A DNA stretch of 64,000 bases from an uncultured Gemmatimonadaceae bacterium (GCA_963716745.1 OY970320.1:3228297-3292296); one strand, 5' to 3'. Shown: positions 24,127 to 47,070, counted from the first letter of the stretch. The notes: generated by a model not told the origin, from the letters alone. Translations and numbers: made by a program.

Positions 24127-24639
24127 ATGAACGCGATCGCCCGTCTGTCCGTTCTCCTGATGCTCGCCGCCGCTCCAATGGCAGCGCAATCACTGCCCGC
24201 CGACTCGCTCTTCGATCGGCTCATCGGCCACTGGGTGCTGCGCGGCACGATCTCGAAGCAGAGCACCACGCACGACGTCAGCTTCGAATGGATGCTTGGC
24301 CGCGAGTACGTCCGGATGCATGAGGTATCGCGCGAGCGCGCGCCGGACGGGAAGCCCGCTTACGAGGCGATCGTCCTGTTCGGCCGCGATCCACGGACGG
24401 GCGAGTACGCGTGTCTCTGGATGGACAACACCGCGACCAGCGCGTTCGACCCCGCGGGCACCGGCCGCGGCATGGTGGCGGGCGACTCGATCCCTTTCCT
24501 GTTCCGCTACACGGCGCTCACGAGCTTCCACACCACCTTCGTCTACAGCGCCGCGACGGATTCGTGGCAATGGCACATGGACAACGACAGCGCCGGCGTG
24601 CGCCGGCCGTTCGCGCGCGTGACGCTCACGCGAGAGTAG
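24127..24639 (+). CDS. Secreted hypothetical protein (DUF1579-like beta fold)
   Basis: RBS GGAGG, signal peptide, FDRLIGHW...WMLGREY...WMDNT. Confidence 0.65.
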   Translation: MNAIARLSVLLMLAAAPMAAQSLPADSLFDRLIGHWVLRGTISKQSTTHDVSFEWMLGREYVRMHEVSRERAPDGKPAYEAIVLFGRDPRTGEYACLWMDNTATSAFDPAGTGRGMVAGDSIPFLFRYTALTSFHTTFVYSAATDSWQWHMDNDSAGVRRPFARVTLTRE

Positions 24640-24752
24640 TGGTGCGAGGGCATCGGCGGCTAGCGGTGAATCCGCTCTGGTGCCTCACTGCGCAGCGCCG
24701 TATTTTCGCGTCCAGCATGAGCGCTGTCGCCACGCCTCTTTCGCCCAGGATC

Positions 24753-26670
24753 ATGACACGTATCGCCAAGCTGTTCGCCGTCCCGGCATTCGTCGTGTTC
24801 GTCGCTGCCATGACGCGTTCGCACGCCGCGGAACCGGTCGCGCCCAACGACAATCGCCATGCGGCGGGCACGCTTTCCAACGGCGTGCTGACGCTGAACC
24901 TCGAAGCACGCACCGGCATGTGGTATCCCGAGGGGGAGCATGGCGCGGGGCTCGAGGTCGCTGCGTTCGCGGAGGCGGGAAAGCCGATGTCGGCGCCCGG
25001 CCCGATGATCCGCGTTCCCGCCGGCACGGTGGTGCGGGGCACGGTGCACAATGCGCTCGACAAGCCGCTCCGGGTGTTCGGACTCGGCAAGTTGCGCGGC
25101 AATTCCGACAGCATGATCGTGCCCGTCAATGCGACCGCCGAGTTCACCTTCACCGCGTCCACACCCGGCACCTACTACTACACCGGCCTTCGCGGGTATG
25201 ACTACCTAGGCCTTCGTGCCAATGGCGACCAGCAATTGAACGGCGCGCTCATCGTAGATCCGCCCAATGCGCCGAGAGTCCCGAACGATCGCGTAATGGT
25301 CATCTCGTGGAACGGCGACGTCGACTCGGTCAGCAAGACCGGCATTGGCGTGTTCACGATGACGATCAACGGCTTGTCGTGGCCCCATACCGAGCGGCTC
25401 GATTACACGCAGGGCGATTCCGTGCGTTGGCGCGTGATCAATCTCACCGAGTCCGATCACCCGATGCACCTGCACGGATTCTACTTCCGCGTCGACTCCA
25501 AGGGCGACGGAACGAAGGACACGCTGCTCTCCGCGGATCAGCAGCGCATGGCGGTCACCGAGGTGGTCAATCCGTTCCAGACGATGGCGATCTCCTGGAA
25601 GGCGGATCGCGCCGGGAATTGGATCTTCCACTGCCACTATGCGATGCACCTCTCGAACTACGTCGCGCTCGATTCGAAAGGCGGCACGATGGACATGCCG
25701 ATGAACATTGGCCACACATCGGACGCGCCGCATCGAGATGTTCGGACTCGTGATGGGCGTCCGCATCGCGCCGAAGGGCGAACAAGCCAAGGCGCCCGCC
25801 AATCCACGCACGATCCGCATTTTCGTACGCGAGAAGGCGAACGTCTACGGCTCGCAGCCGGGTTATTCCTTCGTCGTCGCCGGCACGATGGGCGAGCGGG
25901 ACTCGACGTCAATGTCCATTCCCGGCGAGCCGCTCATTCTCGAGCGCGGCAAGCCCGTTGCGGTCACGATCGTGAATACCACCGATGATCACGCGACCAT
26001 CCACTGGCACGGCATCGAGCTGCAGAGCTACCCCGACGGCGTGCCGGGGTGGAGCGGTTCGGGCTCGCATATCATGCCGGCGATCGCGCCGCATGACTCG
26101 CTCACCGTCGTCTTCACGCCTCCGCGCGCTGGCACGTTCATGTATCACTCGCATTTCAGCGAGGTGAAGCAGATCGGCGGCGGTGCGTACGGCCCGATCA
26201 TCGTACTCGAGCCGGGGCAGAAGTACGATCCGGCCACGGACAAGATCCTCTTCTTCGGCGCGGCCGGAGTCGGTACGAACCCGATCTACGGCCCCTTCCC
26301 GGCGATCCTGATGAATGGCAAGGCGCAACCGTACGACATGGATCTCAAGGCCGGCACGCGCTATCGCTTCCGGTTGCTCAATCTCGCGGGTGACGTGGCG
26401 ACGATCGTCGCCCTCAACTCTGGCAAAGACCCGGTCACGTGGCGTGCGATCGCGAAGGACGGCTACACGCTGCCACCGGCGCAAGCGACCTCACGGCCGG
26501 CCACGCTGATCTTCGATCCTGGCGAGATCTATGATTTCGAGTACACACCATCCGCGCCCGGTGAACTCGCGTTGACGTTCGGACCGCCGCCGAATCCGCC
26601 CGGTCCGCCGCCGCCGGGTCCGTTCACTCCGCCGGCGCCCACGATCACCGTGCCGGTGCACGTCAACTGA
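24753..26670 (+). CDS. Multicopper oxidase with four cupredoxin domains; frameshift near 25735
   Basis: HPMHLHG, WIFHCHYAMH, TIHWHG, FMYHSH motifs; signal peptide. Confidence 0.85.
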
Positions 26671-26679
26671 CAGAGCAGA

Positions 26680-26836
26680 GCGCGTGTAGGCCTTAGTACC
26701 GCTGAAGTGGCGCGTTTGGCAACTGAGCGTATAGTACTCCTCGGCGTGAGTAGCCGCGGAAACCACTCGCGCCTTGGCGTACTATACGCTCGGTTGCCAG
26801 ACGCGCTCCTCAAGCGGTACTAGTAACTACAGGCGC
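26680..26836. repeat. Long palindromic intergenic element, copy 1
   Basis: 58-bp imperfect inverted arms (26680-26737 / 26779-26836) around an inner GGCGTGAGT..ACTCGCGCC hairpin. Confidence 0.93.
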
Positions 26837-26862
26837 ATGTGGGTTTGAGTGAGGGCGAAGCG

Positions 26863-27958
26863 ATGAGATTATTGCTCCTGGAGATCCGCCACAACAAGCT
26901 GCTCTGGCTGCTTGTGTTCGTGCCGGTGCTCTTCGTGTACGAGCACTTCCGGCCCGAGGCGCACACCGCGCTCTTCGCGATATCGGTGGTCGCCATCGTG
27001 CCGCTCGCTGCATTGCTGAGTCACGCCACCGAATCGGTGGGCGCGAAGACGGGCGATGCGATCGGCGGACTGCTCAACGCCACGCTCGGGAATCTCACCG
27101 AACTCATCATCGCACTCACCGCGCTGAGCGCGGGGCAGTACATGCTCGTGAAGGCGAGCCTGGCCGGCGCCATCGTAACCAACTCGCTCTTCATGCTGGG
27201 TGCGTCGTTCCTGCTTGGCGGGCTCAAGTATCACGTGCAGGAGTTCAACGGCGCGTCCGCGCGCTTCCAGGCCGGACTCCTCTTCACCGCAACGGTCGCC
27301 CTGCTCGTGCCGAGTGCGGTGGGCGAAGTGGATGGCGACTCAGCCGCGGCCTTCACCCACACGTTGAGCATTGCGCTCTCGGTTCTGCTCATCGCCGGCT
27401 ACGCGCTCGGCATGTACTTCTCGCTCGTGACGCATCGCGGGACCTTCGCCGGCAAAGCGCACGATGAGGATGGCGAGATCCCGTGGCCGATGGCCGTCGC
27501 GCTCACTACGCTGGCCGCGGTCACCGTGCTCGTGGCGCTCGTGAGCGAGATCTTCGTGGAGTCTGTGACAGCAAGCGTCGTCGGCACTGGGCATGTCGCC
27601 GGCGTTCGTCGGATTCATCGTCGTGGCGCTCGTTGGCGGCGCCGCGGAGGGGGCGGCCGCGTTCTCGGGCGCGCGCAAGGACCGGCTCGACCTGAGCGTG
27701 GGCATCGCAATGGGCAGCGCGTCGCAGATCGCGCTCTTCGTCGCGCCCGTGCTCGTGCTCGTGAGCTATGCGATTGGGCCGACGCCCATGGATCTGCTCT
27801 TCTGGCCGGGCGCCGTGCTCATGATGATGATCGGCACGCTCACCGCATCGCTCGCCACGAGCAGCGGCAAGTCGGCGTGGTTCGTCGGCGTGCTGATGCT
27901 CATGGTGTATTCGATCTTCGCCGTCACATTGTTCCTGCTGCCTCCCCGGCCCCTATAG
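26863..27958 (+). CDS. Ca2+/H+ antiporter (CAX/ChaA family); frameshift near 27570
   Basis: GGLLNATLGNLTE, FVGFIVVALVGGAAE, GSASQIALFVAP. Confidence 0.9.
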
Positions 27959-27968
27959 GAGTGGACCG

Positions 27969-28637
27969 ATGACCGAAGCCGCCGCGAAGAAGCCGTCCTG
28001 GCGCGCGCTCGATCCGATCGACCGCATCTCCGAAGCGCTCTTCGGATTGATCATGGTGCTCACGTTCACCGGATCGCTGAGCGCGGCGGAAGCGGGGCAC
28101 TCCGAGATCCGCACCATGCTCATCGGCTCGCTCGGCTGCAATCTCGCGTGGGGACTGATCGACGCGATCTTCTATCTGATGGCGCGACTGAGCGAGCGCG
28201 CGAAGGGCATCGGCACGCTGCTCGCCGTGCACGCCGCAACGGACGCCGACGCTGCACGGCGCGCGATCGCCGATTCGCTCTCCCCCATGCTTGCCTCGCT
28301 CATGCCGCCCATGGCGCTCGACGCCGTGCGCCAGCGGATCAAGGAGATGCCCGATCCGGCCGCGCATCCACGGCTGGGGAAAGCGGATTGGCTGGCGGCA
28401 TTCTCGTCGTTCCTCTGGGTGTTCTTGAGCACCTTCCCGGTCGTGATCCCGTTCATCGTGATGAAGGAGGACGCAATGCGCGCGCTGCGCATCTCGAATG
28501 GGATCGCGATCGCGTTGCTGTTCCTGTGCGGTTTCTTCTTCGGACGCGAGTCCCGGATGAATCCGTGGGTGGCGGGCCTCGCAATGGTACTGGTCGGCGT
28601 TCTCTTGGTAGGCATCACGATCGCGCTGGGGGGATGA
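27969..28637 (+). CDS. VIT1/CCC1-like membrane protein
   Basis: LDPIDRISEALFGLIMVL, GCNLAWGLIDA, about five TM segments. Confidence 0.7.
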   Translation: MTEAAAKKPSWRALDPIDRISEALFGLIMVLTFTGSLSAAEAGHSEIRTMLIGSLGCNLAWGLIDAIFYLMARLSERAKGIGTLLAVHAATDADAARRAIADSLSPMLASLMPPMALDAVRQRIKEMPDPAAHPRLGKADWLAAFSSFLWVFLSTFPVVIPFIVMKEDAMRALRISNGIAIALLFLCGFFFGRESRMNPWVAGLAMVLVGVLLVGITIALGG

Positions 28638-28648
28638 CTCGCTACTAA

Positions 28649-28828
28649 CGGCGCGTGTGGGCTTTAGTACCGCTGAAACGGCGCGTCTAGCAACTGAGCG
28701 TATAGTACGACTCGGCGTGAGTGGAACGAGCCGCGCGCCCTGCACGTAGTTCCTACGTACGCACAGCGGTACCATACGCTCAGTTGCCAGACGCGCCGTT
28801 TCAGTGGTACTAAGACTCACACGCGCCG
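28649..28828. repeat. Long palindromic intergenic element, copy 2
   Basis: 60-bp arms (28649-28708 / 28769-28828) with a longer centre. Confidence 0.93.
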
Positions 28829-28842
28829 AGCAGGAGGTCCCA

Positions 28843-31326
28843 ATGAACGCGATACTGGACGAGATCAAGTTCGGCTTCCGCACGCTCCGGAAAAGCCCGG
28901 GCTTCGCGGTCACCGCGCTCATTACCCTCGCGCTGGGCATCGGCGCGAGCACCGCGATCTTCAGCGTCGTGAACGCGGTGCTGCTGCGGCCGCTCCCGTA
29001 TCCCGATCCCGACCGGCTGGTGTTCGTCACCAGCGACATGCGGAATCGCAATGTGCGCGATTTCAACATGGCGCCGGGCGATCTGAAGGACCTTCGCGAT
29101 CAGACCACGACGTTCACCGGCATCGCCGGCGTCATCACATTCCCAAGTCCGCTCTCGGGCGACAATATCGCGCCGGAGCAAGTGACGGCCGGCTTCGCGA
29201 CACAGAATCTCATTTCTGTGCTCGGCTCGCGCATCGCGCTGGGCCGCGACTTCAACGATGCCGACGCGGCGCCGACCCCGCCGCCGGCCTCGCCGCTGGC
29301 CGCGAACGCGGCCCCGCCGCCGGTGGATGTCGCCGTGCTGCTCTCCAACGGCTTCTGGAAACGTCGTTACGGCGGCGATCCGTCGGTGATCGGCCGCACC
29401 TTCGACCTGGGCGGCGGTAATCATGCCCATGTCGTGGGCGTGCTCGCGCCCGACTTCGAGTTGCTCTTTCCGCCGCGCCTCAACGTCGCACGCAAACCGG
29501 ACGTGATCTTCGCGGCACGCATCGACTGGGCGACGGCATCGCGCATCAATGTCATCTTCTATTGCGTGGGGCGGCTCAAGCCAGGTGCTACGATCGGTGC
29601 CGCGCGCGCGGAGGTGAACGCCGTCGCGACGGACCTGCGCAAGCGTTTCCCCATCGACAGTTCGGCCGGCGTCTATTTCCGCACGGAACCGTTGCGCGCC
29701 AATCTCATCGCGGATGTGCGACCCGCCTTGCTCGCGTTGCTTGGTGGCGTGGTGTTCGTGCTCCTTATCGCGTGCGCGAACGTCGCGAACCTCGTCCTGG
29801 TGCGCACGTCACGGCGCGAACGAGAGCTTGCGGTGCGCGCGGCGTTCGGCGGCAGCCGAGCCCGGTTGGTGCGCCAAATGCTGGTGGAGTCGCTCGTACT
29901 CGCAGCCGGCGGCGTCGCGCTCGGACTCGCGGTCGCGAAGATCGGCATCGCAATGCTGGTCGCGATCGGGCCGCAGGACCTGCCGCAGATCGGCGCCGTA
30001 GAGCTCGACACGCGAGTGCTCGCGTTCTCCGTGCTCGCCGCGTTGATCGCGGCAGCGCTCTTCGGCATCGTACCGGCGCTCCGTGCGTCGCGTCCGAATG
30101 TGATCGGCGTGCTGCGCTCCGCTGGTCGCAGTGCAGAGCTCGGGGCGGGGAAAGTGCTGCGCAACACTGTTGTGGTCGCCGAGGTGACGCTCGCGTTCGT
30201 GCTGTTGATCGGCGGCGGGCTGATGTTCCGGAGTTTCCTCGCGATCGCCGGCGCCGATCCCGGTTTCGATCCGCGCGGCGTGCTGACGTTCGTCGTGCAG
30301 AATGGCAATGCGACCACCCAGGACGCGCGCGCGGCATTCCAGCGCGCATTGCACGATCGCCTCGCGCAGATCCCGGGTGCGACGGGAGTCACCGCCGGGG
30401 CGCCACTCCCGCTCGATGGCACGACGCAGACCGCCCGCTGGGGAACGGCCACTGCCGTCACCGACCCGTCGACGTTCCATCAGGGCAATGTGCACGTGGT
30501 GATCCCGGGATACTTCGGCGTCATGCGAACGCCGATCCTCGCCGGCCGCGACTTCACGGACGCTGACAATACTCCGAAATCGCAATCCGTGATCATCGAT
30601 GACCTGCTCGCGGCGAAAGCCTTCCCGGGAGAGGTCGCGGTGGGAAAGCGTTTGCTCATTCGCGCGCGTTCCGATACCGCCGAATGGGTGGACGTGATCG
30701 GTGTGGTGCGGCACGAGTGGCATGACGGACTCGCCTCGCCGGGACGCGAAGCGTTCTTCATGACGGACGGCGAGTTCGGATTCGGCACCGCTGCCCGGTG
30801 GGCGGTGCGCACCGGCGGCGACCCCGTGCGGCTCGCGCCTCAGGTGCGCGCGGCCGTGGCGGCGCTGGATCCGACCGTGCCCGTGGCCCAGATCGTTCCG
30901 ATGGAGGAGTACGTCGCGCGAGCCGGCGCCTCGACGCGCTTCGCACTCGTGCTCATCGGTGCGTTCGCGGGGATCGCGGTGGTGCTGAGTGGCGTCGGGC
31001 TGTACGGCGTGATCTCGACCGCGGTGCGTCAGCGCACGGCGGAGATCGGCGTGCGCATGGCACTCGGCGCGTCGGCACGCGGCGTGTTCGGTCTCGTGAT
31101 CGGGCAGGGGATCCGCTTGAGTCTCGCCGGGATCGGCGCGGGTCTCGTCGCGTCACTCCTGCTCACGCGCGTGATGCGGAGCATGCTCGTGGGCGTCGCG
31201 CCCACGGATCCCATCACGTTCGCGGCCGTCGCGATCCTCTTCTTCTCGATCGCGACGCTCGCGTGTTACTTGCCGGCGCGCCGGGCGGCGCGGCTCGATC
31301 CATCGAATGCTTTGCGCGATGAATGA
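28843..31326 (+). CDS. ADOP-type duplicated ABC permease (MacB/FtsX)
   Basis: TLALGIGASTAIFSVVNAVLLRPLPY, LLIACANVANL, EIGVRMALGA, PARRAARLDP. Confidence 0.93.
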   Translation: MNAILDEIKFGFRTLRKSPGFAVTALITLALGIGASTAIFSVVNAVLLRPLPYPDPDRLVFVTSDMRNRNVRDFNMAPGDLKDLRDQTTTFTGIAGVITFPSPLSGDNIAPEQVTAGFATQNLISVLGSRIALGRDFNDADAAPTPPPASPLAANAAPPPVDVAVLLSNGFWKRRYGGDPSVIGRTFDLGGGNHAHVVGVLAPDFELLFPPRLNVARKPDVIFAARIDWATASRINVIFYCVGRLKPGATIGAARAEVNAVATDLRKRFPIDSSAGVYFRTEPLRANLIADVRPALLALLGGVVFVLLIACANVANLVLVRTSRRERELAVRAAFGGSRARLVRQMLVESLVLAAGGVALGLAVAKIGIAMLVAIGPQDLPQIGAVELDTRVLAFSVLAALIAAALFGIVPALRASRPNVIGVLRSAGRSAELGAGKVLRNTVVVAEVTLAFVLLIGGGLMFRSFLAIAGADPGFDPRGVLTFVVQNGNATTQDARAAFQRALHDRLAQIPGATGVTAGAPLPLDGTTQTARWGTATAVTDPSTFHQGNVHVVIPGYFGVMRTPILAGRDFTDADNTPKSQSVIIDDLLAAKAFPGEVAVGKRLLIRARSDTAEWVDVIGVVRHEWHDGLASPGREAFFMTDGEFGFGTAARWAVRTGGDPVRLAPQVRAAVAALDPTVPVAQIVPMEEYVARAGASTRFALVLIGAFAGIAVVLSGVGLYGVISTAVRQRTAEIGVRMALGASARGVFGLVIGQGIRLSLAGIGAGLVASLLLTRVMRSMLVGVAPTDPITFAAVAILFFSIATLACYLPARRAARLDPSNALRDE

Positions 31327-31500
31327 CTGCGGACGGCGCGTCTAGGTCTTAGTACCGCTGTAAGTGCGCGTCTAGCAACTGAGCGTATGGTACTACTCGG
31401 CGCGAGTGGGAACGGCCCCACTTACGCCATGCAGTACCATACGCTCAGTTGCTAAACGCGCCGTTTCAGCGGTACTAAGGCCTACGACCGCCGTTCGTAG
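31327..31500. repeat. Long palindromic intergenic element, copy 3
   Basis: Fills the whole gap between two convergent stop codons; arms share TAGTACCGCTG..GCGCGTYTAGCAACTGAGCGTATGGTAC. Confidence 0.93.
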
Positions 31501-33916
31501 TTAGTCCGTGTGCAGCGCCACCATTGGATCCACGCGCGTCGCGCGTCGAGCGGGCACTAAGCAAGCCGTGAGCGCGACAGCCGTGAGCACTCCCACCACG
31601 CTCGCGTAGATCGTCGGGTCGAGTGGCTGCACGTCGAACAGCAGCACCTGCGATCCGTACGCCACGACGACCGCGAGCCCCAAGCCGATCGGGATGCCGA
31701 GTGCGATCTGCCGAATGCCCTGCCGGAACACGAGGCCGAGCACTTGCGAGCCCTTCGCGCCGAGCGCCATGCGAATGCCCACTTCGCGCGTTCGGCGGGC
31801 GACTGAGAAACTCATCACGGCGTACAATCCCACCGAAGCCAGGAAGAGCGCGATCGCCCCGAAGATCATGAACATCACGCCGAACACGCGGATGAACCAC
31901 GTCGGCTCGGCGTACGCCTTCGCCATGGTCTTCACGCGATACACCGGGATGTCGGGCTCGAGTTGCGCCACGTTCTCTCGCACGGCGGTCGCGACGGTCA
32001 TCGGATCGCCGGCCGTGCGCACCGCGATGCTCACGAAGCTCGCGTGCACCTGCGCGATCGGCACGTAGTACATCGGCTCCCGGGGCTTCTCCGTGTCGCC
32101 GGTGTACGTGGATGGGATGATGCCCACGATCGTCATCCACGGCTGCGTGCTCTTGAGGCCGCCTTGGCGCACGCGCCGTCCGATGGCGTCCACGCCGGGG
32201 AAGAACTTGTCGGCGAACGATTGGTTCACGACGACCACGGGATTGCCGCCCGCGCGGTCGGTCTCATCGACGAGCCGCCCGCGAAGCGCCCGGATCTTGA
32301 ACGTCTCGAAGAATCCCGGCGATACGGAGACGAAGTCGGCGCGCGGCACGTCGTTCGGCGTCGCGTACGCGGCGCCGTCGATCATGAGATTGCCGCCATC
32401 GGTGCCGATCCCAGGGAGCCACGATGAGATCGATGCCGCCTCGACGCCCGGCAGCGCGCCGAGCCGCACACGCAGCTGCTCGTAGAAGCGCGCCTGCTGC
32501 AGCGTGTCGGTGTATCCCAGCGGGAACCCGACGCGAGCCGTATAAGATGTTCGCCGTCTGGAAGCCGGGATCCATCCGCTGCAGGTTGGTGACGCTCTTG
32601 ATCATCAATCCGCTCGCGACCAGCAGTCCGCAGGAGAGCGCGATCTCGCCCACAACCAGGGCCCGGCTCACGATCCCGATGCGCATGCTCGAAGAGCCGC
32701 GCGATTCATCTTTGAGCACTTCATTGATATCGGCGCGTGACGATTGCAGCGCCGGCAGCGCGCCCGACATCAGCGTGGCGAGCACCGCGAGTCCGATCAC
32801 GAATGCGAGCACGGGCGGATGCATGCCAATGTCGATCCAGGAGGGCGGCTGCGCATCCACCAGATACGCATTGAACGCGCGGATCCCGCCGTAGGCGACG
32901 CCGGTGCCGAGCACCGCGCCCGCGGCGGCGAGCACGAGCGCCTCCGTGAGGAACTGGCGCACGACCGCCGCGCGCAATGCGCCCAGGGCGGTGCGCACGC
33001 TGATCTCCTTCGCGCGATGCGCAGCGCGCTCCAGCAGCAGGTTCGCCACGTTCGCGCACGCGATGAGCAATACGAAGAACACCGCGAAGAGCATCGCCCA
33101 CAGCAGTTTCACCGGACCGGGGCCGATCTCGGCGTCGGTGTACGGCAGCGCGCCCGCGGTGATGCTCTCGTTCGTCTCCTTGAAGCGCTCGGCGAGTCCT
33201 TTCGCGATCAATGCCATGTCGAGCGAGGCGCGCTGCACGCTCACGCCCGGCTTGAGGAGCGCGACGGCGGTGACGGTGCGCTGCTCCTCGCGCTTGCCGA
33301 CGAGCGGATCGTCCTGCAACGGCAGCCAGAGGTCGACGTTATCGGGCAGCGAGAACTTCTCGGGCATCACGCCGATGATGGTGTACGGTTGCGCGTTCAC
33401 GCGGATCACCTGTCCCAGCACCGTGCGGGCGCCGCCGAATCGCTTCTGCCACATGCCGTAGCCGATCACCGCGACTTTCGCGCCGGTGGGGCTGTCCTCT
33501 CCCGCCGTGATCGTGCGGCCGAGCAACGCGGGCGTGTGCATGATCTGGAAGAGCGGCGCGGTCACCCACGCGCCGAAGTAGCGTTCGGGCAGGCCATCGC
33601 CGCTGACGTTCATCGTGCCATCGGTGTACGCGGCCATCAGCGCGAAGCTGTGCTGCTGGTCGCGATAGTCGACGTACTCGCCCCACGGGATGTCGCGGCG
33701 GATCTCCTTGTGCGCGACATCGTTGCGCTGCACCTCGACGATCCGCGAGGCGTCGTCGTACGGGAGCCCTTTGATCAGCGCGCCGTACACGATGCTGAAC
33801 ATCGTGGTCGTGACGCCGATGCCGAGCGTGAGGGCGAGCGTCGCGAAGAGCGTGACGCCGGGGCTCTTGATGAGCGAGCGGATGCCGTAGCGGATGTCGC
33901 GAAGGATCGCGTTCAT
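31501..33916 (-). CDS. ADOP-type duplicated ABC permease; frameshift near 32540
   Basis: MNAILRDIRYG, LLIACANVANL, EVGIRMALGA, PARRATRVDP. Confidence 0.9.
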
Positions 33917-33971
33917 GGTCGTCCGGGTGAGGTCACCCGTCACGACGGCGCGCGGGCGCGCGATGTTTCAG

Positions 33972-34253
33972 CTAGTGATACCCGCCCAGCATGGTCAGCG
34001 CGAGCACGACGATCCCCATGATGAACTGCACGGCGCACCATACCAACCACGTGATGTCGGTGCGCTTGCGCCAGAAGAGCCAGCCGAGTCCCGCGATTAA
34101 GATGCCCGTCACGACGGCGATGAGCAGATATCCCTTGATGTGGTCCGGGAACGCCAACGGGTTCGCACGAATGATGTACGCCGACACGAGATGCCCTGAG
34201 AGGCCGAGCACGAGCAGTGCGACGCCGAGCCAGGCTTTCTGTTTGGTGACCAT
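33972..34253 (-). CDS. Small three-TM membrane protein
   Basis: MVTKQKAWLG...; three hydrophobic segments; co-oriented with PadR. Confidence 0.65.
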   Translation of the reverse strand: MVTKQKAWLGVALLVLGLSGHLVSAYIIRANPLAFPDHIKGYLLIAVVTGILIAGLGWLFWRKRTDITWLVWCAVQFIMGIVVLALTMLGGYH

Positions 34254-34260
34254 GTGCGGC

Positions 34261-34854
34261 TCAGCCGACCGCGTCGAGTTCCGACGCCGCGCGCCGCAGG
34301 ATCTCGGCGATCTTCGCGATCTGCTCCGGCGTCGCGCCACCTTTCATCACAATGCGCGCATAGGCGCGGCCGAGTTGGCCCATCGCTTCGTGCGCGGCGA
34401 TCATCGGACGCCCGCCGAAGAGCGATTCACCGAACTGCACGAGACGCTCGAGCACATCGTCTACCGTGGTACGGTTCTCGGCGAGGTACTTCCGGCCTTC
34501 GTCCGTGATGGCGTAGACCTTCTTGCCGGAATCCTCGAGCGTGGCCTTGGCGTAATCCATCTCTTCGAGGAGGCTGAGGGTGGGGTACACCGTACCCGGG
34601 CTGGGCGAGTAGCCGCCGCCCGACTTCTCCTCGAGGGCCTTGATGATGTCATAGCCGTGGCGCGGCTTCTCATCGAGCAGCTGCAGGATGACGAGCTTGA
34701 GATCGCCCTGGTCGAACATTCGGGCGCCGCGCCGGAATCCGCGGCCGCGTCCCGGCCCGAAGGCGAAGGCCGCGAAGCCGGAATCGCCGAACCAGTCGTG
34801 CCGGCCGTGACGATGGCGGTGGTGGTGGGAGGATCCGCAATCATGCCATATCAT
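34261..34854 (-). CDS. PadR-family regulator with His-rich N-terminus (YqjI-like)
   Basis: GDLKLVILQLLDEKPRHGYDII...SPGTVYPTL..LEE...KKVYAITDEG. Confidence 0.93.
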   Translation of the reverse strand: MIWHDCGSSHHHRHRHGRHDWFGDSGFAAFAFGPGRGRGFRRGARMFDQGDLKLVILQLLDEKPRHGYDIIKALEEKSGGGYSPSPGTVYPTLSLLEEMDYAKATLEDSGKKVYAITDEGRKYLAENRTTVDDVLERLVQFGESLFGGRPMIAAHEAMGQLGRAYARIVMKGGATPEQIAKIAEILRRAASELDAVG

Positions 34855-34864
34855 AGTAGGACTC

Positions 34865-34900
34865 CAAGATAGTACTAAGTTATATCTTAGTATATCTTAG
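34865..34900. promoter_or_regulatory. Putative PadR auto-operator
   Basis: AT-rich CTAAGTTATATCTTAG near-palindrome plus tandem TATATCTTAG x2 just upstream of padR. Confidence 0.6.
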
Positions 34901-34943
34901 GAATCCGTGGCGTCAAGGGGCGTGGCGAGGGAGGAACCGGCCG

Positions 34944-35969
34944 TCAGAATCCCAAGAGAGACCCGCGATCCGTGCAGCCCCGCGCTTTGTTCGAGTATTC
35001 GCTTTGGATCTGGTACTGGTGGGAGCCCATGGTCTCGTTGTTGTCGAACACGAAACACAGGTCGGCCATCTCATTTCCCGTGAGCACGTTGAACCAGGCG
35101 TTGAGGTCGGGGTCGGACGACGCCTCGAAGAACTCATGCGAGAGCGTTGACGCTGTCGCGTCGATCGTGCCATGCGGACTCAAGCGCGGATTCTGGCAGC
35201 CATCCACTCCCTGGTAGGGCTCCACGGTGTACACGACGTGCACACCGCCCCCGAAGGTGATCGACCCGTGAAACGCACAGAAGAAGAAGCTCTGCGGCGA
35301 GTCCGGCGAATAGCAATCGCCAGGCTGTTGGCACATGTCCACGCCCTGCGGCAGGAAGACGTGGTAGATGTTCGCGTAGCCGCTCCGGCCGGTCACTGTC
35401 ACCGCCTGAAACAGGAGGTTGTCGAGCTCGCCTTGGGTCAGCACGTTGTTGTCGCCGGCAATGTTCGGGTCGACGGCCAGGAGCGAGTCGACGCTCCATT
35501 TGCCGGTCACGTGCGCTCCCACGTACTGATCGAGTACGGAGATGATCTGGCTGCTGTTCAGGTCTCTGAGAAAGTCGGACGGTCCTGTTGCGCCCGAACC
35601 CCAGCAGGAAATGGAACTCCCACCGCAATTGACGAATACCGCCCAATTGGTGCCGCCGGTGAGCACGGGTCCGCCGAAGTTCGAGAGATCCCACGGCGAG
35701 TTGAACGAGGTCGCCGATGCGTTGGAGCCGTCGCGCTGGCGAGAATCGGACGGAGGGAATACCGTCCGACGCGCGATGGTGGGCCACGCGCGTCCAACGG
35801 TCTCGAGAGCGGCAGCGGCGGTGCGCCCTCCATCGGGCGCGACCGTAAGGCGCAGCACCTGTGCGGGCGGCGCGACGGAGGTGGGCGCGTCAGCGCCGCA
35901 GGCACCGGCCGCAATGCTCAGCACTGTCACCAGGATCGCGGGTGATACTCTGACGTTCGACGTCGCCAT
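34944..35969 (-). CDS. Secreted or lipoprotein with a Phi-1/EXORDIUM-like domain
   Basis: FCAFHGS, STLSHEFFEASSDP, GNEMADLC; N-terminal hydrophobic stretch with Cys. Confidence 0.6.
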   Translation of the reverse strand: MATSNVRVSPAILVTVLSIAAGACGADAPTSVAPPAQVLRLTVAPDGGRTAAAALETVGRAWPTIARRTVFPPSDSRQRDGSNASATSFNSPWDLSNFGGPVLTGGTNWAVFVNCGGSSISCWGSGATGPSDFLRDLNSSQIISVLDQYVGAHVTGKWSVDSLLAVDPNIAGDNNVLTQGELDNLLFQAVTVTGRSGYANIYHVFLPQGVDMCQQPGDCYSPDSPQSFFFCAFHGSITFGGGVHVVYTVEPYQGVDGCQNPRLSPHGTIDATASTLSHEFFEASSDPDLNAWFNVLTGNEMADLCFVFDNNETMGSHQYQIQSEYSNKARGCTDRGSLLGF

Positions 35970-36159
35970 TTGATCCTCGCACGGAGAGGGAATAGTTGCG
36001 GCAGGCGCGCCGAATGATACCCCACAGCGGCACCTCGGGTCACTTTCGCGCGACCAGATCCCAGCTCTCCTCCGAGCCTGGCGGCTTGGTAAACGGGGGC
36101 GACCCCGGTACACATCCGGGGCCGGCACGTATGACCTCAACTTCCCAGGGGGATCCGAG

Positions 36160-36534
36160 ATGTCTCCTACTTCGAAGAACGGAAAGATCTGCTACCTCGA
36201 GCTTCCCGCGACCGACGTGCGTCGGTCAGCTGAGTTCTACCGCACGGTGTTCGGGTGGAACATGCGCGCGCGTGGCGACGGCGCGACGGCGTTCGACGAC
36301 ACGACCGGTGAAGTGAGTGGCGCGTTCGTCACCGGACGGGCACCGGCGTCGAGTCCGGGCCTCCTCCTCTATATCATGGTGAGCGATGCGCAGGCGGCGG
36401 TCGCTCTCGTCAAATCGGCCGGCGGCGAGATCGTTCAGCCCATCGGCGTGGACGCGCCCGAGATCACGGCGCGATTCCGCGACCCGGGCGGGAACATCAT
36501 CGGCTTGTACCAGGAACCGAAACCGAAGAGCTAG
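36160..36534 (+). CDS. VOC/glyoxalase family protein
   Basis: ICYLELPATD..RSAEFY..VFGW; FRDPGGNIIGL. Confidence 0.9.
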   Translation: MSPTSKNGKICYLELPATDVRRSAEFYRTVFGWNMRARGDGATAFDDTTGEVSGAFVTGRAPASSPGLLLYIMVSDAQAAVALVKSAGGEIVQPIGVDAPEITARFRDPGGNIIGLYQEPKPKS

Positions 36535-37584
36535 AGATGTGGCGGCTTGACCACTGACGGCGGCGGCGCTGGCGGCGGCGCTGGCGGCGGCGCTGGCGGC
36601 GCTGGTGGCGGCGGGTGGTGGCGGGTGAAACTCCACGCGTGGCGGATCGAACCGCGAGGTTGGCGGTGGCGCGGCAGGCGGCGCCGGCGGCGGCGACGCC
36701 GGCGCTGGATGTGGGAACGAATTGATCAGCGGCGGCGCGGGGCGCGGTGCCACCGGCGCCGGAGTCATGGCGCTCGGCGCAGCCGCGATCCGCGGCGGAT
36801 CGGGATACGGGTAACGAGGTGCAGTAGCCGGACCACCGAGATTCAATGGCGGCGCGGGTGGTGGCGGCGGTGACGTCGCCGAAGGAGGCGGCGGAAGGTC
36901 GACCGGCGTCTGCGGATCGATGCAGCCGCCACACACGTACACGCCGCCACCCGGCACGTCGCACGCATAGCCCGGGCCGCAGTCGGTGTTCGAGATGTCC
37001 GTTGTCACGAGCGGTGCTGGCGCCGTCACGATGCTCGCGACATCATTCGCTCCAAGAACTTCATACTGCACGAGGTCATCCTCGAACGCTCCACCGCTCA
37101 TGCGCTCGGCGACCGCCTGGAGCGCGGGCTCAGGATCCGCGGCGATGCGGGTCGAGTCGTCGCTGCCGAGCATCCACTTGCCGCGGCGCGTGAACGCTGC
37201 GAATTGGAACGGCACGCGCGAATACGCGGCGTAGACGAGTCCAGCGCCGGCCGAGCCATTCACCTCGAACGAATAATTGCCGTGTGCACTATAGACGCCC
37301 ATGTCGCCGCCGCGAACGAACGCGTCGGCGCCGGGCGATGCGGGGAAGATCACGTGCGCGACGCGGTCGGCATCCATCTGCAGCACCACGACGTACCCGT
37401 CTTCACGGGTCGCGACGAGTACCGTCGCGCGATCACCGGGATCGTAGCGGTCGCGGTCCAGATACAGTCGTATTGCCGGCGGCTTATCACTCGAGTCGGC
37501 GGGCACTTGCGCCGCCGCTGACGGAGCGGCTGCGCCAAGCGTGATCGTCACGAGCACTGCGTTCAGCACGCGATGCGACATCAT
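36531..37584 (-). CDS. Secreted DUF4384-domain protein with Pro-rich tail; probable frameshift near 36615
   Basis: YDPGDRATVLV.TREDGYVVVL...FP; an alternate frame ends PPPAPPP..VKPPHL* at 36531, abutting the VOC stop. Confidence 0.7.
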
Positions 37585-37757
37585 TCCTCCGGGCACGAGC
37601 GCCGGTGCGGTCCCCTGCGTTGCACTGTGCTCCCATTCATGCTACGGCGACCGCTCGGGATTCGTTGGGGGCGTGGCGCTTCTGTTTACCAATGGTCACT
37701 GGTATTCGCGGGGTGACTGGTTAAGAATTCGGGACGCTCCGAACGGAGACACCCCCA

Positions 37758-38897
37758 GTGACCGCTTCGAACAGTAGAACCCGCGCGCGCGCCCGCGCCG
37801 CGGTGGTGGTCCTCTTCGCGGCACTCGCCGCCTGCGGAAAGAAAGGCGGTGCGTTCGCCTTTCCGCCCGCCGACGTGACGTTCGTCACAGTGCAACCCGG
37901 CGCCGTCGCCCAGCCCATCGAATTCAGCGGGCAGGTGGTGGCGTACCGCCGCGTGGAGGTGCGCTCGCGCGTGGACGGGATCATCGAATCGCGCGATTTC
38001 ACGGAAGGCGCGGTGGTCGAGCCCGGGCAGCTCCTGTACCAGATCGAACGCACGCGCTTCGACGCCGCGTATCGCAGCGCCAAGGCGCGCTTCGACAACG
38101 CGCAGCGCACGCTCGCGCGGCTCGAGCCGCTCCTCGCGCGTCACGCGGTGGCGCAGCAGGACGTGGACAACGCGCGCTCCGAGTTCGAGAGCGCGCAGGG
38201 CGCGATGGACCAGGCGAAGAAGGATCTCGACGACACGGAGATCCGCGCGAAGATCGCCGGCCGCGTGGGACGCACGCAGCTCGATGTCGGCGCGCGCGTC
38301 ACCGGTCCCGCCGATCTGCTTACGACGATCGACCGGCTCGATCCCGTGTACGTGACGTTCCGTCCGAGTTCGGACCAGCTCGTGGCATGGCAGCAGGATT
38401 CCGCCGCGCGCGCGATGCTGCGTGCCGGCAGCAAGCTCACGGTGCACGTGCTGCTCCCCGATGGCACCGAGTTGCCGCGCACGGGGCATCTCGATTTCGT
38501 CGCGCCGGCGCTCGACCCGGCCACGGGCACGCAGGAATTCCGCGCGCGGTTCGACAACGCCGATCGCGTGCTCCTGCCCGGTGAATTCGTGCGCGTGCGT
38601 CTCGAGGGACTCGTGCAGCGCGCTGCGATCGCCGTACCGCTGCGCGCGGTGCAGTCGGCGCTGGGCCGCCAATTCGTGTACGTCGTGGGCGCGGGCGACA
38701 CGGCGAGCATGCGCGACGTGAAGCCGGGGCCGTGGGCCGGCAATCTCTGGATCATCGACCAGGGGCTGCGGCCCGGCGATCGCGTGATCGTGGATGGCAT
38801 CCAGAAGGTGGCGCCCGGGCGCCCGGTGCATGCGACGGCGCTCACCGATTCCGCCGCGGTGCCGCACGCCGACACGATGCGCAAGGCGGGCTTGTGA
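37758..38897 (+). CDS. RND periplasmic adaptor lipoprotein (AcrA/MexA-like)
   Basis: LAACGKK lipobox, VEVRSRVDG, LLPGEFVRV, GLRPGDRVIVDG. Confidence 0.93.
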   Translation: MTASNSRTRARARAAVVVLFAALAACGKKGGAFAFPPADVTFVTVQPGAVAQPIEFSGQVVAYRRVEVRSRVDGIIESRDFTEGAVVEPGQLLYQIERTRFDAAYRSAKARFDNAQRTLARLEPLLARHAVAQQDVDNARSEFESAQGAMDQAKKDLDDTEIRAKIAGRVGRTQLDVGARVTGPADLLTTIDRLDPVYVTFRPSSDQLVAWQQDSAARAMLRAGSKLTVHVLLPDGTELPRTGHLDFVAPALDPATGTQEFRARFDNADRVLLPGEFVRVRLEGLVQRAAIAVPLRAVQSALGRQFVYVVGAGDTASMRDVKPGPWAGNLWIIDQGLRPGDRVIVDGIQKVAPGRPVHATALTDSAAVPHADTMRKAGL

Positions 38898-41800
38898 CCA
38901 CGCCGGCACCGAGCGGCGCCGGCGAGGGCGCGCCGGAGATCCGCTACTTCTTCATCCGGCGTCCCGTGCTCGCCGGCGTGCTCTCGATCATCATCACGCT
39001 GCTCGGCCTCTTCGCGATCCGGCTGCTGCCGATCTCGCGCTATCCGCAGATCACGCCGCCGGGCGTGCAGGTGAGTGCCGTGTACCCGGGCGCCACCGCG
39101 CAGGACGTGGCCGACGCCGTCGCCGCGCCGATCGAGCAGCAGCTGCCGGGTCTGCAAGGACTGATGTACTACTCGTCGGCGAACGCGAGCGACGGCACGA
39201 TGGGGCTGCAGATCACCTTCGATGTGACGCGCAGCCAGGATCTTGCCGCGGTGGACGTGCAGAACGCGGTGCAGGTGGCGGTGCCGCAGCTGCCCGATGC
39301 CGTGCGGCAGAACGGCGTCACGATCCTCAAGGCCAACACCGACATCCTGGCCGTCGCCGCGCTCACGTCGAGCGATGGGCGCTACGATGCGCCGTATCTC
39401 ACGAACTACCTCAAGCTCTACCTCGAGGACGAGCTCAAGCGCGTGCCCGGCATCGGCAACGCGCAGACGTTCCCGAGTCTGCAGTTCTCGATGCTGCTGC
39501 AGCTCGATCCGGCGCGCATGTCCAAGCTCCGCGTCACGGTGGGCGATGTCGCCTCGGCGGTGCGCGAACAGAACACGACGAATCCCGCGGGGCGGCTCGG
39601 GCGCGAGCCGGCGCCCGTCGGCACCGAGATGACGATCCCGATCACCGCGCAGGGGCGGCTGCAGACGCCCGCGCAGTTCGACGACATCGTCGTGCGCGCC
39701 AATCCCGATGGGTCGGAGGTGCGCGTGAGCGACGTGGGCCACGCGAAGCTCGGCGCGCTGTCGTACGATTTCGCCGCGCGTCTCAACGGGAAGCCCGCGG
39801 CGTTCGTGCTGCTCTTCATGCGGCCCGGCGCGAATGCGATCGCAGGTGCGCGACGCCGTGGAGAAGCGGCTCGCCGAGTTGAGCAAGGCGTTCCCGCCCG
39901 GCATCCACTACAGCATTCCCTTCGACACGACGCCCTTCGTCACGGCGAGCGTAAAGGAAGTGGTGTTCACGCTGCTCGAGGCGATGGCGCTCGTGGCGCT
40001 CGTGGTGTTCGTCTTCCTGCAGAGCTGGCGCGCGACGCTCATTCCGCTGCTCGCGGTGCCGGTGAGCGTCATCGGCACATTCCTCGGATTGTTCATCCTG
40101 GGGTTCTCGATCAACGTGCTGACGCTGTTCGCGCTCGTGCTCGCGATCGGCATCGTGGTGGATGACGCGATCGTCGTGATCGAGAACGTCGAACGCATCA
40201 TGGTCACCGAGCACGTATCGGCGCGCGTCGCGGCCGACCGCGCCATCCGTCAGGTGGCGGGCGCGCTGGTGGCGATCGTCCTCTCGCTCGTGGCGGTGTT
40301 CCTGCCGGTGGCGTTCACCGGCGGTGTGACGGGCGCGATGTTCAAGCAGTTCGCGATCACGATCGCGATCGCGGTGGTGCTCTCGGGGCTGGTGGCGCTC
40401 ACGCTCACGCCCGCGCTCTGCGCGCTGCTGCTCAAGGAGACGGTCGAGACGCATACGACTGGGCCGTTCGGCGCATTCAACCGCGGCTTCGCGCGCTTCT
40501 CCGAGCGCTACGCCGGCGCGGTGGACAGCGTGCTCGGCCGGCCGCGCGCCTGGCTCGCCGCCGTGGTGGTGATCATCGGGCTCGCGGCGATCCTGTGGCG
40601 CGTCGTGCCGAGCGCGTTCATCCCCACCGAGGACAAGGGCTACTTCGCGATCGCGGTGCAGCTGCCCGACGCGGCGTCGCTCCAGCGCACCACCGCCGTG
40701 GTGGAGCGCGTGGAAGGATTCCTGCGGCAGGATTCCGCCGTGCAGAATATCGTGGCGCTCGCCGGCTTCGACATCCTCAGCCGCGCGAGCCAGCCGAACA
40801 GCGCCACGATCTTCGTGAACGTGAAGAACTGGGACGAGCGCAACAAGCAGGAATCGGTCGACGCGATCACGGGGCGGCTGAACGGCAAGTTATTCGGAAT
40901 GAAGGAAGCCGTCGGCTTCTCGTTCAACCTGCCCGAGATCCCGGGGCTCGGCGCGTCGTCGGGCGTCGAGGCGAATCTGCAGAACATCGGCGGGCTCTCG
41001 GTGCAGGACTTCGCCACGCAGGTGCAAGCATTCTCCGCCGCGGCGAACCAGCTGCCGGCGGTGGCGGGCGTGAACGCGAACTTCCGCGCGAACGTGCCGC
41101 AACTGTACGTAGACGTGGACCGCGCGGCCGCCAAGGCGCGCGGCGTGGCGCTCGGCGACGTGTTCGGTACGCTGCAGGCGCTGATGTCCACGCTGTACGT
41201 GAACGATTTCAACTTGTACGGCAAGACGTACCGCGTGCAGATCGAAGCGCAGGCGCCGTACCGCCAGCGCCCGCAGGACCTCGACCAGCTCTACGTGCGC
41301 GGCAAGGATGATGTGATGCTGCCCATCTCGACGTTCATTCGCGCGGATTTCCGCAGCGGACCCACGCTGCATCACGCGCTTCAACGGATTCATGTCGGCG
41401 CTGGTGACCGGCGCGCCCAAGGAAGGACACAGTTCGGGCGAGATGATGAACGAGCTCGATGAACTCGTGCGCACGAAGTTCGCGCCCGTGGGACTCGCGG
41501 TGGCGTACTCGGGGCAGTCGTACCAGGAGCGCGCGTCGAGCGGTGCGGCGGGCACGGTGTTCGCGCTCGGCCTCGTGATCGTGTTCCTCGTGCTCGCGGC
41601 GCAATACGAGAGCTGGTCGCTGCCGTTCGCCGTGCTGCTCGGTGTTCCGTTCGGCGTACTCGGCGCGTTCCTGGGCATCTGGCTGCGCGGGCAGCCTAAT
41701 GACATTTACGTGCAAGTGGGACTGCTCACCGTGGTAGGGCTCGCGGCCAAGAACGCGATCCTCATCGTGGAGTTCGCCACCGAGCTGCGCGCGCAGGGAT

Positions 41801-42054
41801 TGTCGATCAGAGACGCAGCGCTCCAGTCGGCGCGCGAGCGGCTGCGTCCCATTCTCATGACGTCATTCGCGTTCATTTTGGGCGTGTCGCCGCTGCTGAT
41901 CGCAAGCGGCGCCGGCGCGGCGAGCCGTCACTCGATCGGCACCACCGTGTTCGCCGGTATGCTGATCGCGACATCGATCGGGATCTTCTTCATCCCGCTC
42001 TTCTTCTGGATGATCCGAAGCCTCGCGGAGCGGGGCAGTGCGGGGAGCGCATGA
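38894..42054 (+). CDS. HAE1 RND efflux permease; frameshifts near 39840 and 41370
   Basis: FFIRRPV, GIVVDDAIVVIENV, AAKNAILIVEF, RLRPILMTS. Confidence 0.92.
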
Positions 42055-43541
42055 GCGCGCGCGCCGTTGCGGCCGCGCTGATCGCGGCACTTTGCGCGTG
42101 CGCAGTGGGGCCGGACTACGAGCCGCAGCCCCCGGTGCCGCCGACCACGCAGGTTGGCACGCCGCGCGGGCCCGATTCGATCACGAAGTTCTACGATTCG
42201 CTGGCCGCCGCGCGTGCCATGGACTCATCGGTCACGGCACAGGTGCCCACGGCGCACACGGTGCTCGCGACGCAGATCGCGGATCTCGCGTGGCTCGACA
42301 TCCTGAACGACACGATCCTCGTGCGACTCGTCGAGACCGCCATACACCAGAACCGCGATCTCGCGGTGGCGCGGGCGCGCATTACCGAGTTCCGCGCCGA
42401 GGCGGGTGTCGCGGCGGCGCCGTTGTATCCGAACATCTCGATCAATGCGTCGGCGAGCACGAATCGCATCGCGCTGCCGAACCTGACGTACGAGGCGTAT
42501 CGCGCCACCGGCGATCTCGCCTGGGAGCTCGACTTCTGGGGGAAGACGCGGCGCGGCGTGCAGGCCGCGAAGGCCGATCTCGCCGCGCAGGATGAGTTCG
42601 CGCGCGCCGCGGTGCTCTCGCTCGTCAGCGACGTCGCGACCGCGTACCTCACGCTGCTCGAACTCGACCAGGAACGCGCGATCTCGGAGCAGACGCTCGC
42701 GACGCGCCGCGCAACGCTCGACCTTGCGCGCCAGCGCTATGAGAACGGCGTCACGAGTGAGATCGATGTGCGCGCCTTCGAGGCGCAGGTGGCCGTGCCG
42801 GCGGCGCGGCTCGCGCAGGTGCAGCAACTGCGCGCCCAGCAGGAACATCTGTTGAGCGTTCTGATGGGTGACGCGAACGCCGTGATCCCGCACGGCACGC
42901 TGCTTACGCTGGCCTCGCGCACGGTGATCATCCCGGATTCGCTCCCGTCCACGCTGCTGTCACGGCGCCCCGATGTGAAGGCGGCCGAGCGGCAGTATGC
43001 GGCCGCGATGGCGCGCATCGGCGTGGCGGACGCGGCGAGGTATCCGGCGTTCTCGATCGTGGCGTCGTACGGCCAGCAATCCACGACCGTGGGGCAGATC
43101 TTCGCACCCGGGAACAACGTGTACGTGCTGCAGGGCGGGCTGTCGTTCCCACTCTATACGGGTGGGCAGCTGAGCGAAGAGGTGCGCGCCGCGCGCGCGC
43201 GGGCGCAGCAGGCGCAGGCGGCGTACGAGCAAGTGTCGCTCACCGCATTGCAGGAAGCGGGCGACGCACTCGCCGGCGTCCGATCCGCGCGAGAGCAGGC
43301 CGCCGCGCAGGAGACGCAGACCGTGGCATTGCGCCGCGCGCTCGTGCTCGCGCAGGACCGGTACACGGGCGGCGTGTCCGGATTCCTCGAGGTGCTCGAG
43401 GCGCAACGCGGGCTATTCGATGCGGAGGTGGCGTTGAGCCAATCGCAGCTCGCGGAGATGGTCGCGGCAGTTCAGCTCTACAAAGCACTCGGCGGGAGCT
43501 GGGCGGACTCCCTAACCTCTACAGGCGTTCATAGGCCTTAG
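42051..43541 (+). CDS. Outer-membrane efflux factor lipoprotein (OprM/NodT-like)
   Basis: CAVGPDY, WELDFWG, LLSRRPDV.AAE, LYKALGGSW. Confidence 0.93.
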   Translation: MSARAVAAALIAALCACAVGPDYEPQPPVPPTTQVGTPRGPDSITKFYDSLAAARAMDSSVTAQVPTAHTVLATQIADLAWLDILNDTILVRLVETAIHQNRDLAVARARITEFRAEAGVAAAPLYPNISINASASTNRIALPNLTYEAYRATGDLAWELDFWGKTRRGVQAAKADLAAQDEFARAAVLSLVSDVATAYLTLLELDQERAISEQTLATRRATLDLARQRYENGVTSEIDVRAFEAQVAVPAARLAQVQQLRAQQEHLLSVLMGDANAVIPHGTLLTLASRTVIIPDSLPSTLLSRRPDVKAAERQYAAAMARIGVADAARYPAFSIVASYGQQSTTVGQIFAPGNNVYVLQGGLSFPLYTGGQLSEEVRAARARAQQAQAAYEQVSLTALQEAGDALAGVRSAREQAAAQETQTVALRRALVLAQDRYTGGVSGFLEVLEAQRGLFDAEVALSQSQLAEMVAAVQLYKALGGSWADSLTSTGVHRP

Positions 43542-43678
43542 TACCGCTGAAACTGCGCGTTTAGCAACTGAGCGTATGGTACCACGAGGCGGGAGTGGGG
43601 AGGCCACTCGCGCCCTGCCGTACCATACGCTCACTTGCTAAACGCGCTTCTCAAGCGGTACCAGGGTCTACATGCGCC
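43524..43678. repeat. Long palindromic element, copy 4; overlaps the OMF stop codon
   Basis: TAGGCCTTAGTACCGCTGAAACTGCGCGTTTAGCAACTGAGCGTATGGTAC ... GTACCATACGCTCACTTGCTAAACGCGC. Confidence 0.93.
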
Positions 43679-46871: not shown

Positions 46872-46969
46872 ACGAGGCTCTCCAAGGCTGATGGGACGGT
46901 GACCGCCGTGAGACGCTACGGCACGCAGGTCGGCGGCGCTAGAGAACGGCGAAGCTCACGCCACCCACG

Positions 46970-47070
46970 CGGGAAGCGGGAAGCGGGAAGCGCCGCGGGA
47001 TGCGATAACCGCGCGTGGGCTCCTCGCGCACTGCACGCCTCCCGCGGCGCTTCCCGCTTCCCGCTTCCCG
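46970..47070. repeat. 31-bp perfect inverted repeat built from GGGAAGC heptamers
   Basis: 46970-47000 is the exact reverse complement of 47040-47070. Confidence 0.92.

Follow-up and report, generated by a model that had tools for sequence, protein, structure and literature searches.

We analysed a 64,000-nucleotide stretch of DNA from an uncultured soil Gemmatimonadaceae bacterium (GCA_963716745.1 OY970320.1:3228297-3292296; hereafter the window), which holds four long palindromic elements placed close to gene ends. All four are gene-less hairpins of a single family, designated F, and none is assigned a strand (hairpin families are labelled A-H, and this genome G000). Copy 1 (26680..26837) lies 3' of a multicopper-oxidase gene and 5' of a Ca/cation exchanger gene, copy 2 (28649..28828) has a long loop that resembles the inner junctions of a gene-bearing cassette described below, copy 3 (31335..31491) is located between convergent ABC-permease genes, and copy 4 (43524..43678) between convergent genes for an outer-membrane efflux protein and a BNR-repeat protein. 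In these copies, arms of ~73 bp enclose a loop of 6-32 nt, and copy 3 folds with z = -17 when compared with 200 shuffles. An empty family-F site was also found at 33960..34010 (no strand); judged from the orthologous sequences, a fifth F copy near 33970 is lost in G000 and kept in G002, G004, and G005.

An earlier interpretation of the window, made without database searches (the sequence-only reading), had described these four related inverted-repeat elements and their arm consensus correctly. Its statement that every copy starts near the stop codon of a + strand gene held for copies 1, 2, and 3 (9, 12, and 8 nt downstream, respectively) and not for copy 4, where the in-frame stop of the assembled open reading frame (ORF) falls within the element (43539-43541). 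Because a TAA 8 nt upstream of copy 4 is off by one frame in G000 yet in frame in G004, this misplacement is probably an assembly indel. The multicopper oxidase, ABC permease, and RND transporter genes of the window (24411-26670, 31501-33943, and 38732-42054) are likewise split by frameshifts, probably through assembly errors. Genome-wide, 17/22 F copies have an inward-reading stop <=22 nt from an end, and convergent gaps are over-represented (8/22 vs. 149/1088, p 0.007), with divergent gaps holding 4/22; these gene-end statistics rest on our own crude gene calls.

The arms are made up of 44 near-fixed columns interleaved with 29 variable ones. GTAG/GTGG occurs in 36/44 arms, within the paired stem, and AAC-type outer ends in 15/43 arms vs. 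2.4% background. Single arms are not palindromic (mean folding z +0.5, 3/44 below -2). As had been noted previously, there is no sign of target-site duplication: in the 21/22 copies tested, the longest direct repeat in the flanks was 3.38 nt, against 3.38 in shuffled pairs. The compensatory change reported earlier proved weak: the examples given exist, copy 2 breaks two of them, and the 22 F copies together show 42 both-arm changes vs. 37.1±5.2 in shuffles, with 291 changes in one arm only. Arms of the same copy are 80.6% alike, vs. 80.4% between different copies. A modest excess of covariation in G000 is confined to the inner half (middle segment 11 vs. 6.2, p 0.02; inner 19 vs. 13.3, p 0.056; outer 10 vs. 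15.2); G004 is similar and G005 stronger. Sense-strand mismatches are not biased towards G·U over A·C (26 vs. 26 in F; 191 vs. 194 in 109 tandem-site copies of 7 families), and the pairing tests lend no support to the proposed structured 3'-UTR RNA, although the hairpins may yet act as RNA bound by a protein. By a rough leading-strand assignment, the G·T counts were 371 vs. 368 overall and 55 vs. 78 for F alone (p 0.056). That the words are fixed, the two arms independent, and the mismatches symmetric between strands suggests sequence-specific recognition at the DNA level.

Searches with BLAST and nhmmer recovered 28 F loci in G000, including 22 full hairpins, four of which are those of the window. 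An F arm query matched 4/301 genomes of the family Gemmatimonadaceae, all of the same genus, and a 28-nt arm pattern was counted 46 times in G000, 50 in G002, 91 in G004, 20 in G005, and 0 in G001 and G003. The closest named records were uncultured Gemmatimonadaceae. Rfam returned nothing at gathering score (8 sub-threshold matches, mostly to miRNA hairpin models), and blastn of copy 3 against phages and plasmids gave no match. Contigs of four soil sequencing runs carry arms, gene parts, and gene-less joints, which probably stem from other copies and do not testify to excision. With many copies, orthologous sites that are filled, empty, or swapped among relatives, and no Rfam match, the suggestion of an unrecognised non-autonomous hairpin element has stood up well.

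IVP cassettes and their hairpin families

Outside the window, one locus of family F bears a gene. This cassette (G000:C1:3094934-3095594) consists of one left and one right F arm around a 137-amino-acid ORF (3095017-3095430, minus strand) of TIGR02436/PF05635 (23S_rRNA_IVP; IVP hereafter), the only gene enclosed by F arms. A RAYT flanked by the element had been proposed as a possibility; the enclosed gene is of PF05635 instead. The cassette lies between trxA and rsmI, antisense, and occupies the same site in G002, G004, and G005, where in G005 it starts on the trxA stop codon. In the outgroups G001, G016, and G020, the trxA-rsmI gap measures 54-77 bp and holds no cassette; in G007 it is an unrelated 1.1 kb, and rsmI was not matched in G003. 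F arms and the F cassette co-occur in four genomes, and neither was found in G001 or G003 (both fragmented). In G000 (G000:C1:3090828-3094938), G002, and G004, though not in G005, a partial F arm that follows trxA is separated from the cassette by three genes, one of which encodes a multicopper oxidase.

The IVP ORF is conserved: when 128 codons were compared with G005, 39 had synonymous changes only and 24 had non-synonymous ones. Its structural model (pLDDT 95.6) matched the S23-family structures 2RLD and 2GSC best, followed by Avd (4DWL; Foldseek TM 0.59-0.71 at 10% identity). A search with the protein sequence gave 4,198 matches, and the family is very widespread; in viral contigs, no member of this IVP subfamily was confirmed. 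To our knowledge, the 23S_rRNA_IVP/four-helix-bundle family has no known function outside diversity-generating retroelements (DGRs). Within a genome, each family has just one copy that bears a gene. Among gene-less copies, the longest loops (32-44 nt) resemble cassette inner junctions, 6/6 at or below 3/60 shuffles. Simple decay does not describe the centre of window copy 2, which had been called a decayed inner hairpin: it is similar to both inner junctions of the cassette (as high in 1/60 shuffles).

This arrangement is not limited to family F. In G000, inverted arms surround 7/7 matches to PF05635 (one is frameshifted and below cut-off), and each of the 7 IVP genes has its own arm family of 28-75 loci, with just one locus common to any two families. 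Among congeners, 22/22 assessable IVP rows (19 distinct loci) were arm-flanked, after 7/29 had been dropped (4 without a match, 3 at contig ends). In the wider subfamily from other phyla, 42/78 IVP loci were arm-flanked (2/80 dropped for short flanks), vs. 0/68 shifted controls and 40/458 mismatched pairs; the arms there are mostly 7-base arrays, and related short words are kept across phyla. A de novo scan of G000 detected hairpins in 386/1995 intergenic gaps, in 14 clusters representing 13 families, of which 7 match IVP cassettes, 2 adjoin GxxExxY genes, and 4 have no partner found in G000. Where a family's cassette is missing from G000, this genome has 0-4 loci of that family, and positions that bear a cassette in relatives are occupied in G000 by gene-less hairpins.

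Some of these families deserve mention in their own right. Sister family B comprises 75 loci, among them 40 hairpins; one gene-less hairpin with heptamer arms lies in the window at 46968..47070, and the cassette of this family is at G000:C1:568183-568730. The GxxExxY genes, which we take to encode PD-(D/E)XK-type nucleases, are at G000:C1:1094820-1095158 and 2952907-2953214 and adjoin hairpin families of ~40 and ~23 copies; the first also lies within short inverted arms. Family A forms a dense run of 19 loci, many one gene apart, at G000:C1:905940-951448, and de novo family 9 (G000:C1:554997-555402 and 15 other sites) comprises large palindromes that are branched and measure 115-400 bp; a partner gene was not found. 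The window further contains a 9-bp tandem array (3599-3823) that codes for a Pro/Thr- or Gly-rich repeat.

Orthologous sites and family replacement

Between G000 and G004, orthologous F copies (11 pairs) differ at 2.0% of conserved columns (19/966), 23.5% of variable columns (149/635), and 18.2% of four-fold sites in the flanks (272/1493); the corresponding values against G002 are 1.6%, 17.1%, and 13.9%. Conserved arm columns thus evolve ~nine times slower than silent sites. The fixed words of the F copies are therefore maintained in place under selection, while the positions between them drift. When 54 rows of F sites in relatives were compared, G000 carried F at 11/21 (G004), 13/19 (G002), and 2/14 (G005); the remaining rows in G000 were deletions (central deletions among them), remnants, or hairpins of other families.

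The window copies illustrate this range. Copy 1 has an orthologue in G004 and is absent in G002, where the two neighbour genes abut, and copy 3 has orthologues in G002 (99%) and G004 (87%). At the site of copy 2, both G002 and G004 hold two F copies around an extra ~1.6-kb gene, and copy 2 seems to be a hybrid of two such copies. The copy 4 site is occupied by a family-H hairpin in G002 and G005, and in G004 by an F hairpin, a 1.7-kb gene, and another hairpin. Gene content between F copies thus varies among the genomes in the case of window copies 2 and 4, as it does at 1103457-1106737.

Replacement of one family by another was most evident for the sister families G and H. The locus G000:C1:2641088-2641796 is a G cassette in G000 and an H cassette in three relatives, the two genes being 73% identical (H gene of G002 vs. 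G004, 92%). H arms number 3 in G000 vs. 28, 20, and 54 in the three relatives, and G arms 76 in G000, 40 in G002, and 0 in G004 and G005. In a comparison covering 17 G002, 15 G004, and 8 G005 regions, H sites of the relatives were G in G000 in 12/17 (G002), 8/15 (G004), and 4/10 (G005) rows. This exceeds the G share of hairpin gaps (46/386) with p 3e-8 for G002 and 1e-4 for G004, and G took 0/54 of the F-site rows. Short H-like ends persist outside some G copies, and G and H arms are related. The H-to-G overwriting is concerted and accompanies the cassette swap.

Explanations for the spread of the hairpins

We consider the four elements to be non-autonomous parts of a RAYT/REPIN-like system that is inherited vertically and whose partner is an IVP/Avd-fold protein and not a transposase; the probability we assign to this reading is roughly 0.55. 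Its parts differ in strength. The window palindromes are almost certainly gene-less relatives of the IVP cassette, and their spread and overwriting probably depend on that cassette; that specificity is given by the IVP protein itself is a view towards which we lean. The first gene-less copies would have arisen via central deletion of a cassette. The IVP protein, which may form a pentamer, judging from its resemblance to 2GSC and Avd, would recognise the words in the arms of its own family; the likeliest substrate is DNA, as a duplex, a cruciform, or a single-stranded hairpin. It could then serve as a specificity adaptor for a separate enzyme, either from host recombination/repair or the GxxExxY nuclease, and the recruited enzyme would place copies of the arms at sites near stop codons and overwrite resident related hairpins. 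The hairpin copies may also provide homology for the gain and loss of neighbouring genes.

Several points weigh against this proposal. Most empty F sites look deletion-like or hold another family, so that F gain at a naive site is presumptive for each individual site. Only top-scoring sites were compared (21 rows of ~45 F copies in G004), the compared genomes are kin and not independent, and their assemblies carry frameshifts. Except for the longest, the loops (n=73) did not resemble the cassette more than shuffles did (Wilcoxon p 0.44 overall). Given that 4/13 families have no partner found in G000 and 2 adjoin GxxExxY genes, arms are not always IVP-dependent. Because G and H arms are related, gene conversion could contribute to the overwriting, and since no G cassette was found in G002 (a 63%-complete assembly) despite its 40 G arms, G had spread before taking the H slot. 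We know of no catalytic activity of IVP proteins, and the mechanism of copying and overwriting is inferred, with IVP binding, expression, and movement only predicted.

It is conceivable, though unlikely, that the hairpins are primarily host-serving RNA elements in mRNA 3' ends and intercistronic regions (termination, stabilisation), possibly an IVP-bound regulon, for which spread is secondary. This would be compatible with the IVP reading, and it would fit the copies that abut stops, the enrichment of convergent gaps, the selection in place with sites refilled by other families, and the modest inner-half covariation; Avd also acts on RNA (PMC6182149). RNase III, a destroyer of long stems, was not found (PF00636 and PF14622; 0/31 genomes of the order, 23 of them at least 90% complete, with controls positive in 8/14), which may allow long hairpins in transcripts. 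Mismatches that do not favour G·U, arms that vary almost independently, and copies in divergent gaps argue against it, and concerted family overwriting is not explained by an RNA role alone.

We give similarly little credence to the IVP gene as a passenger, with the arms spread by an unrelated enzyme: a missed RAYT or TIRYT, the GxxExxY nuclease in trans, or host recombination alone. The lack of a known catalytic role for IVP, the incompleteness of the genomes (63-90%), and the two hairpin families beside GxxExxY genes can be read this way, as can TIRtrons, which show that Y1 enzymes can make long terminal-inverted-repeat (TIR) families (PMC3733652). Y1_Tnp (PF01797), however, was found in 0/6 genus genomes; a one-to-one match of 7 IVP genes to 7 families, with cassette-linked overwriting, would be hard to obtain, and a passenger would not be expected to show a conserved ORF or related short words kept across phyla.

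Unlikely too is the idea that the whole cassette is the sole mobile unit, each hairpin being a scar left when a separately inserted cassette lost its gene by deletion. The junction-like longest loops, the gene-less hairpins of G000 at cassette sites of its relatives, and the central deletions are what this idea leads one to expect. Against it stand the single gene-bearing copy that each family has in a genome and the fact that, throughout the genus, cassettes keep to orthologous sites; scars should also decay, yet the conserved columns evolve far more slowly than silent sites. Membership in a classical class (REP/REPIN, integron attC, or an RNase III-excised intervening sequence) is largely refuted and very improbable: GTAG/GTGG, AAC-type ends, an integron integrase in the genome, and a protein of the intervening-sequence ORF family point that way; against it, no RAYT or RNase III was found in the genomes searched, the arms are not self-palindromic and not in rRNA, and no A-G family lies near the integron.

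A full-text literature search (most subscription journals and supplements were outside its scope) found no publication that connects IVP genes with dispersed repeat families. If the IVP reading is true, it would explain how long palindromic repeat families can originate without a transposase and how genes come to be gained and lost between such repeat copies. The seven paralogues, each with its own family of fixed words, allow a direct comparison of cognate and non-cognate pairs, the H-to-G overwriting is a natural experiment, and the 23S_rRNA_IVP family offers solved structures as well as a very wide distribution.

Comparison with known systems

The system works like REPIN yet fails membership of REP/RAYT, miniature inverted-repeat transposable elements (MITEs), rRNA intervening sequences (IVS), DGRs, and attC. 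RAYT genes are flanked by their own inverted repeats, whose abundance is tied to the gene (PMC2817692; PMC3686654; PMC3116915), and resident copies are overwritten upon gene exchange (10.1101/2024.10.14.618302; PMC3686654). Shared features are a single cognate gene for each family, with the repeat on both sides in inverted orientation; extragenic, multi-copy hairpin doublets with vertical inheritance and no target-site duplication; and copy number and resident copies that follow the cognate gene, shown here for the sister families G and H. The partner, however, is an IVP/Avd-fold four-helix bundle whereas RAYT is an HUH Y1 transposase, and the arms are ~75-bp word arrays, unlike REPs (20-40-bp palindromes with an unpaired GTAG/GTGG tag). 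Because GTAG/GTGG lies within the stem and single arms are not palindromes, the F elements are not REPs. The closest layout is that of TIRtrons, with a small gene within long TIRs and a moderately abundant gene-less family (PMC3733652); TIRYTs are tyrosine transposases, and none was found in the genus genomes.

Other classes were considered and set aside. A MITE of a DDE transposon would not suit the missing target-site-duplication signal and an enclosed gene that is IVP and no transposase. As for integron attC, the integrase of G000 (G000:C1:2775564-2776508, frameshifted in the assembly) is followed by cassettes with an attC-like site of different sequence, unrelated to the hairpin families, and families A-G have no copy in the surrounding 2,770,000-2,812,000.

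The protein itself leads to two further systems. In Coxiella and Leptospira, 23S rRNA IVS carry an S23p ORF in the loop that their terminal inverted repeats enclose. Heptamer repeats lie upstream of this ORF, which has no known function and for which a mobility role is proposed as one hypothesis (PMC4990558). An S23p-family protein between inverted repeats is common to both; unlike an rRNA IVS, the cassette lies between protein genes (trxA and rsmI) in antisense orientation relative to the operon, gene-less copies of it are dispersed, and no RNase III was found in the 31 genomes. A DGR was likewise rejected, with reverse transcriptase (RVT_1, PF00078) in 0/6 genus genomes and no template/variable repeat pair. 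What is shared with DGR Avd is the fold (PDB 4DWL), and Avd is a pentameric, non-catalytic accessory for templated target rewriting that works on RNA (PMC6182149; PMC10053308). We tentatively suggest, as an idea that falls short of an even chance, that stand-alone IVP/Avd-fold proteins are specificity factors of undescribed, vertically inherited repeat replicators, copying and overwriting without an HUH transposase, reverse transcriptase, or RNase III; the rRNA IVS and DGR Avd would then be specialised offshoots, and the GxxExxY genes a parallel version.

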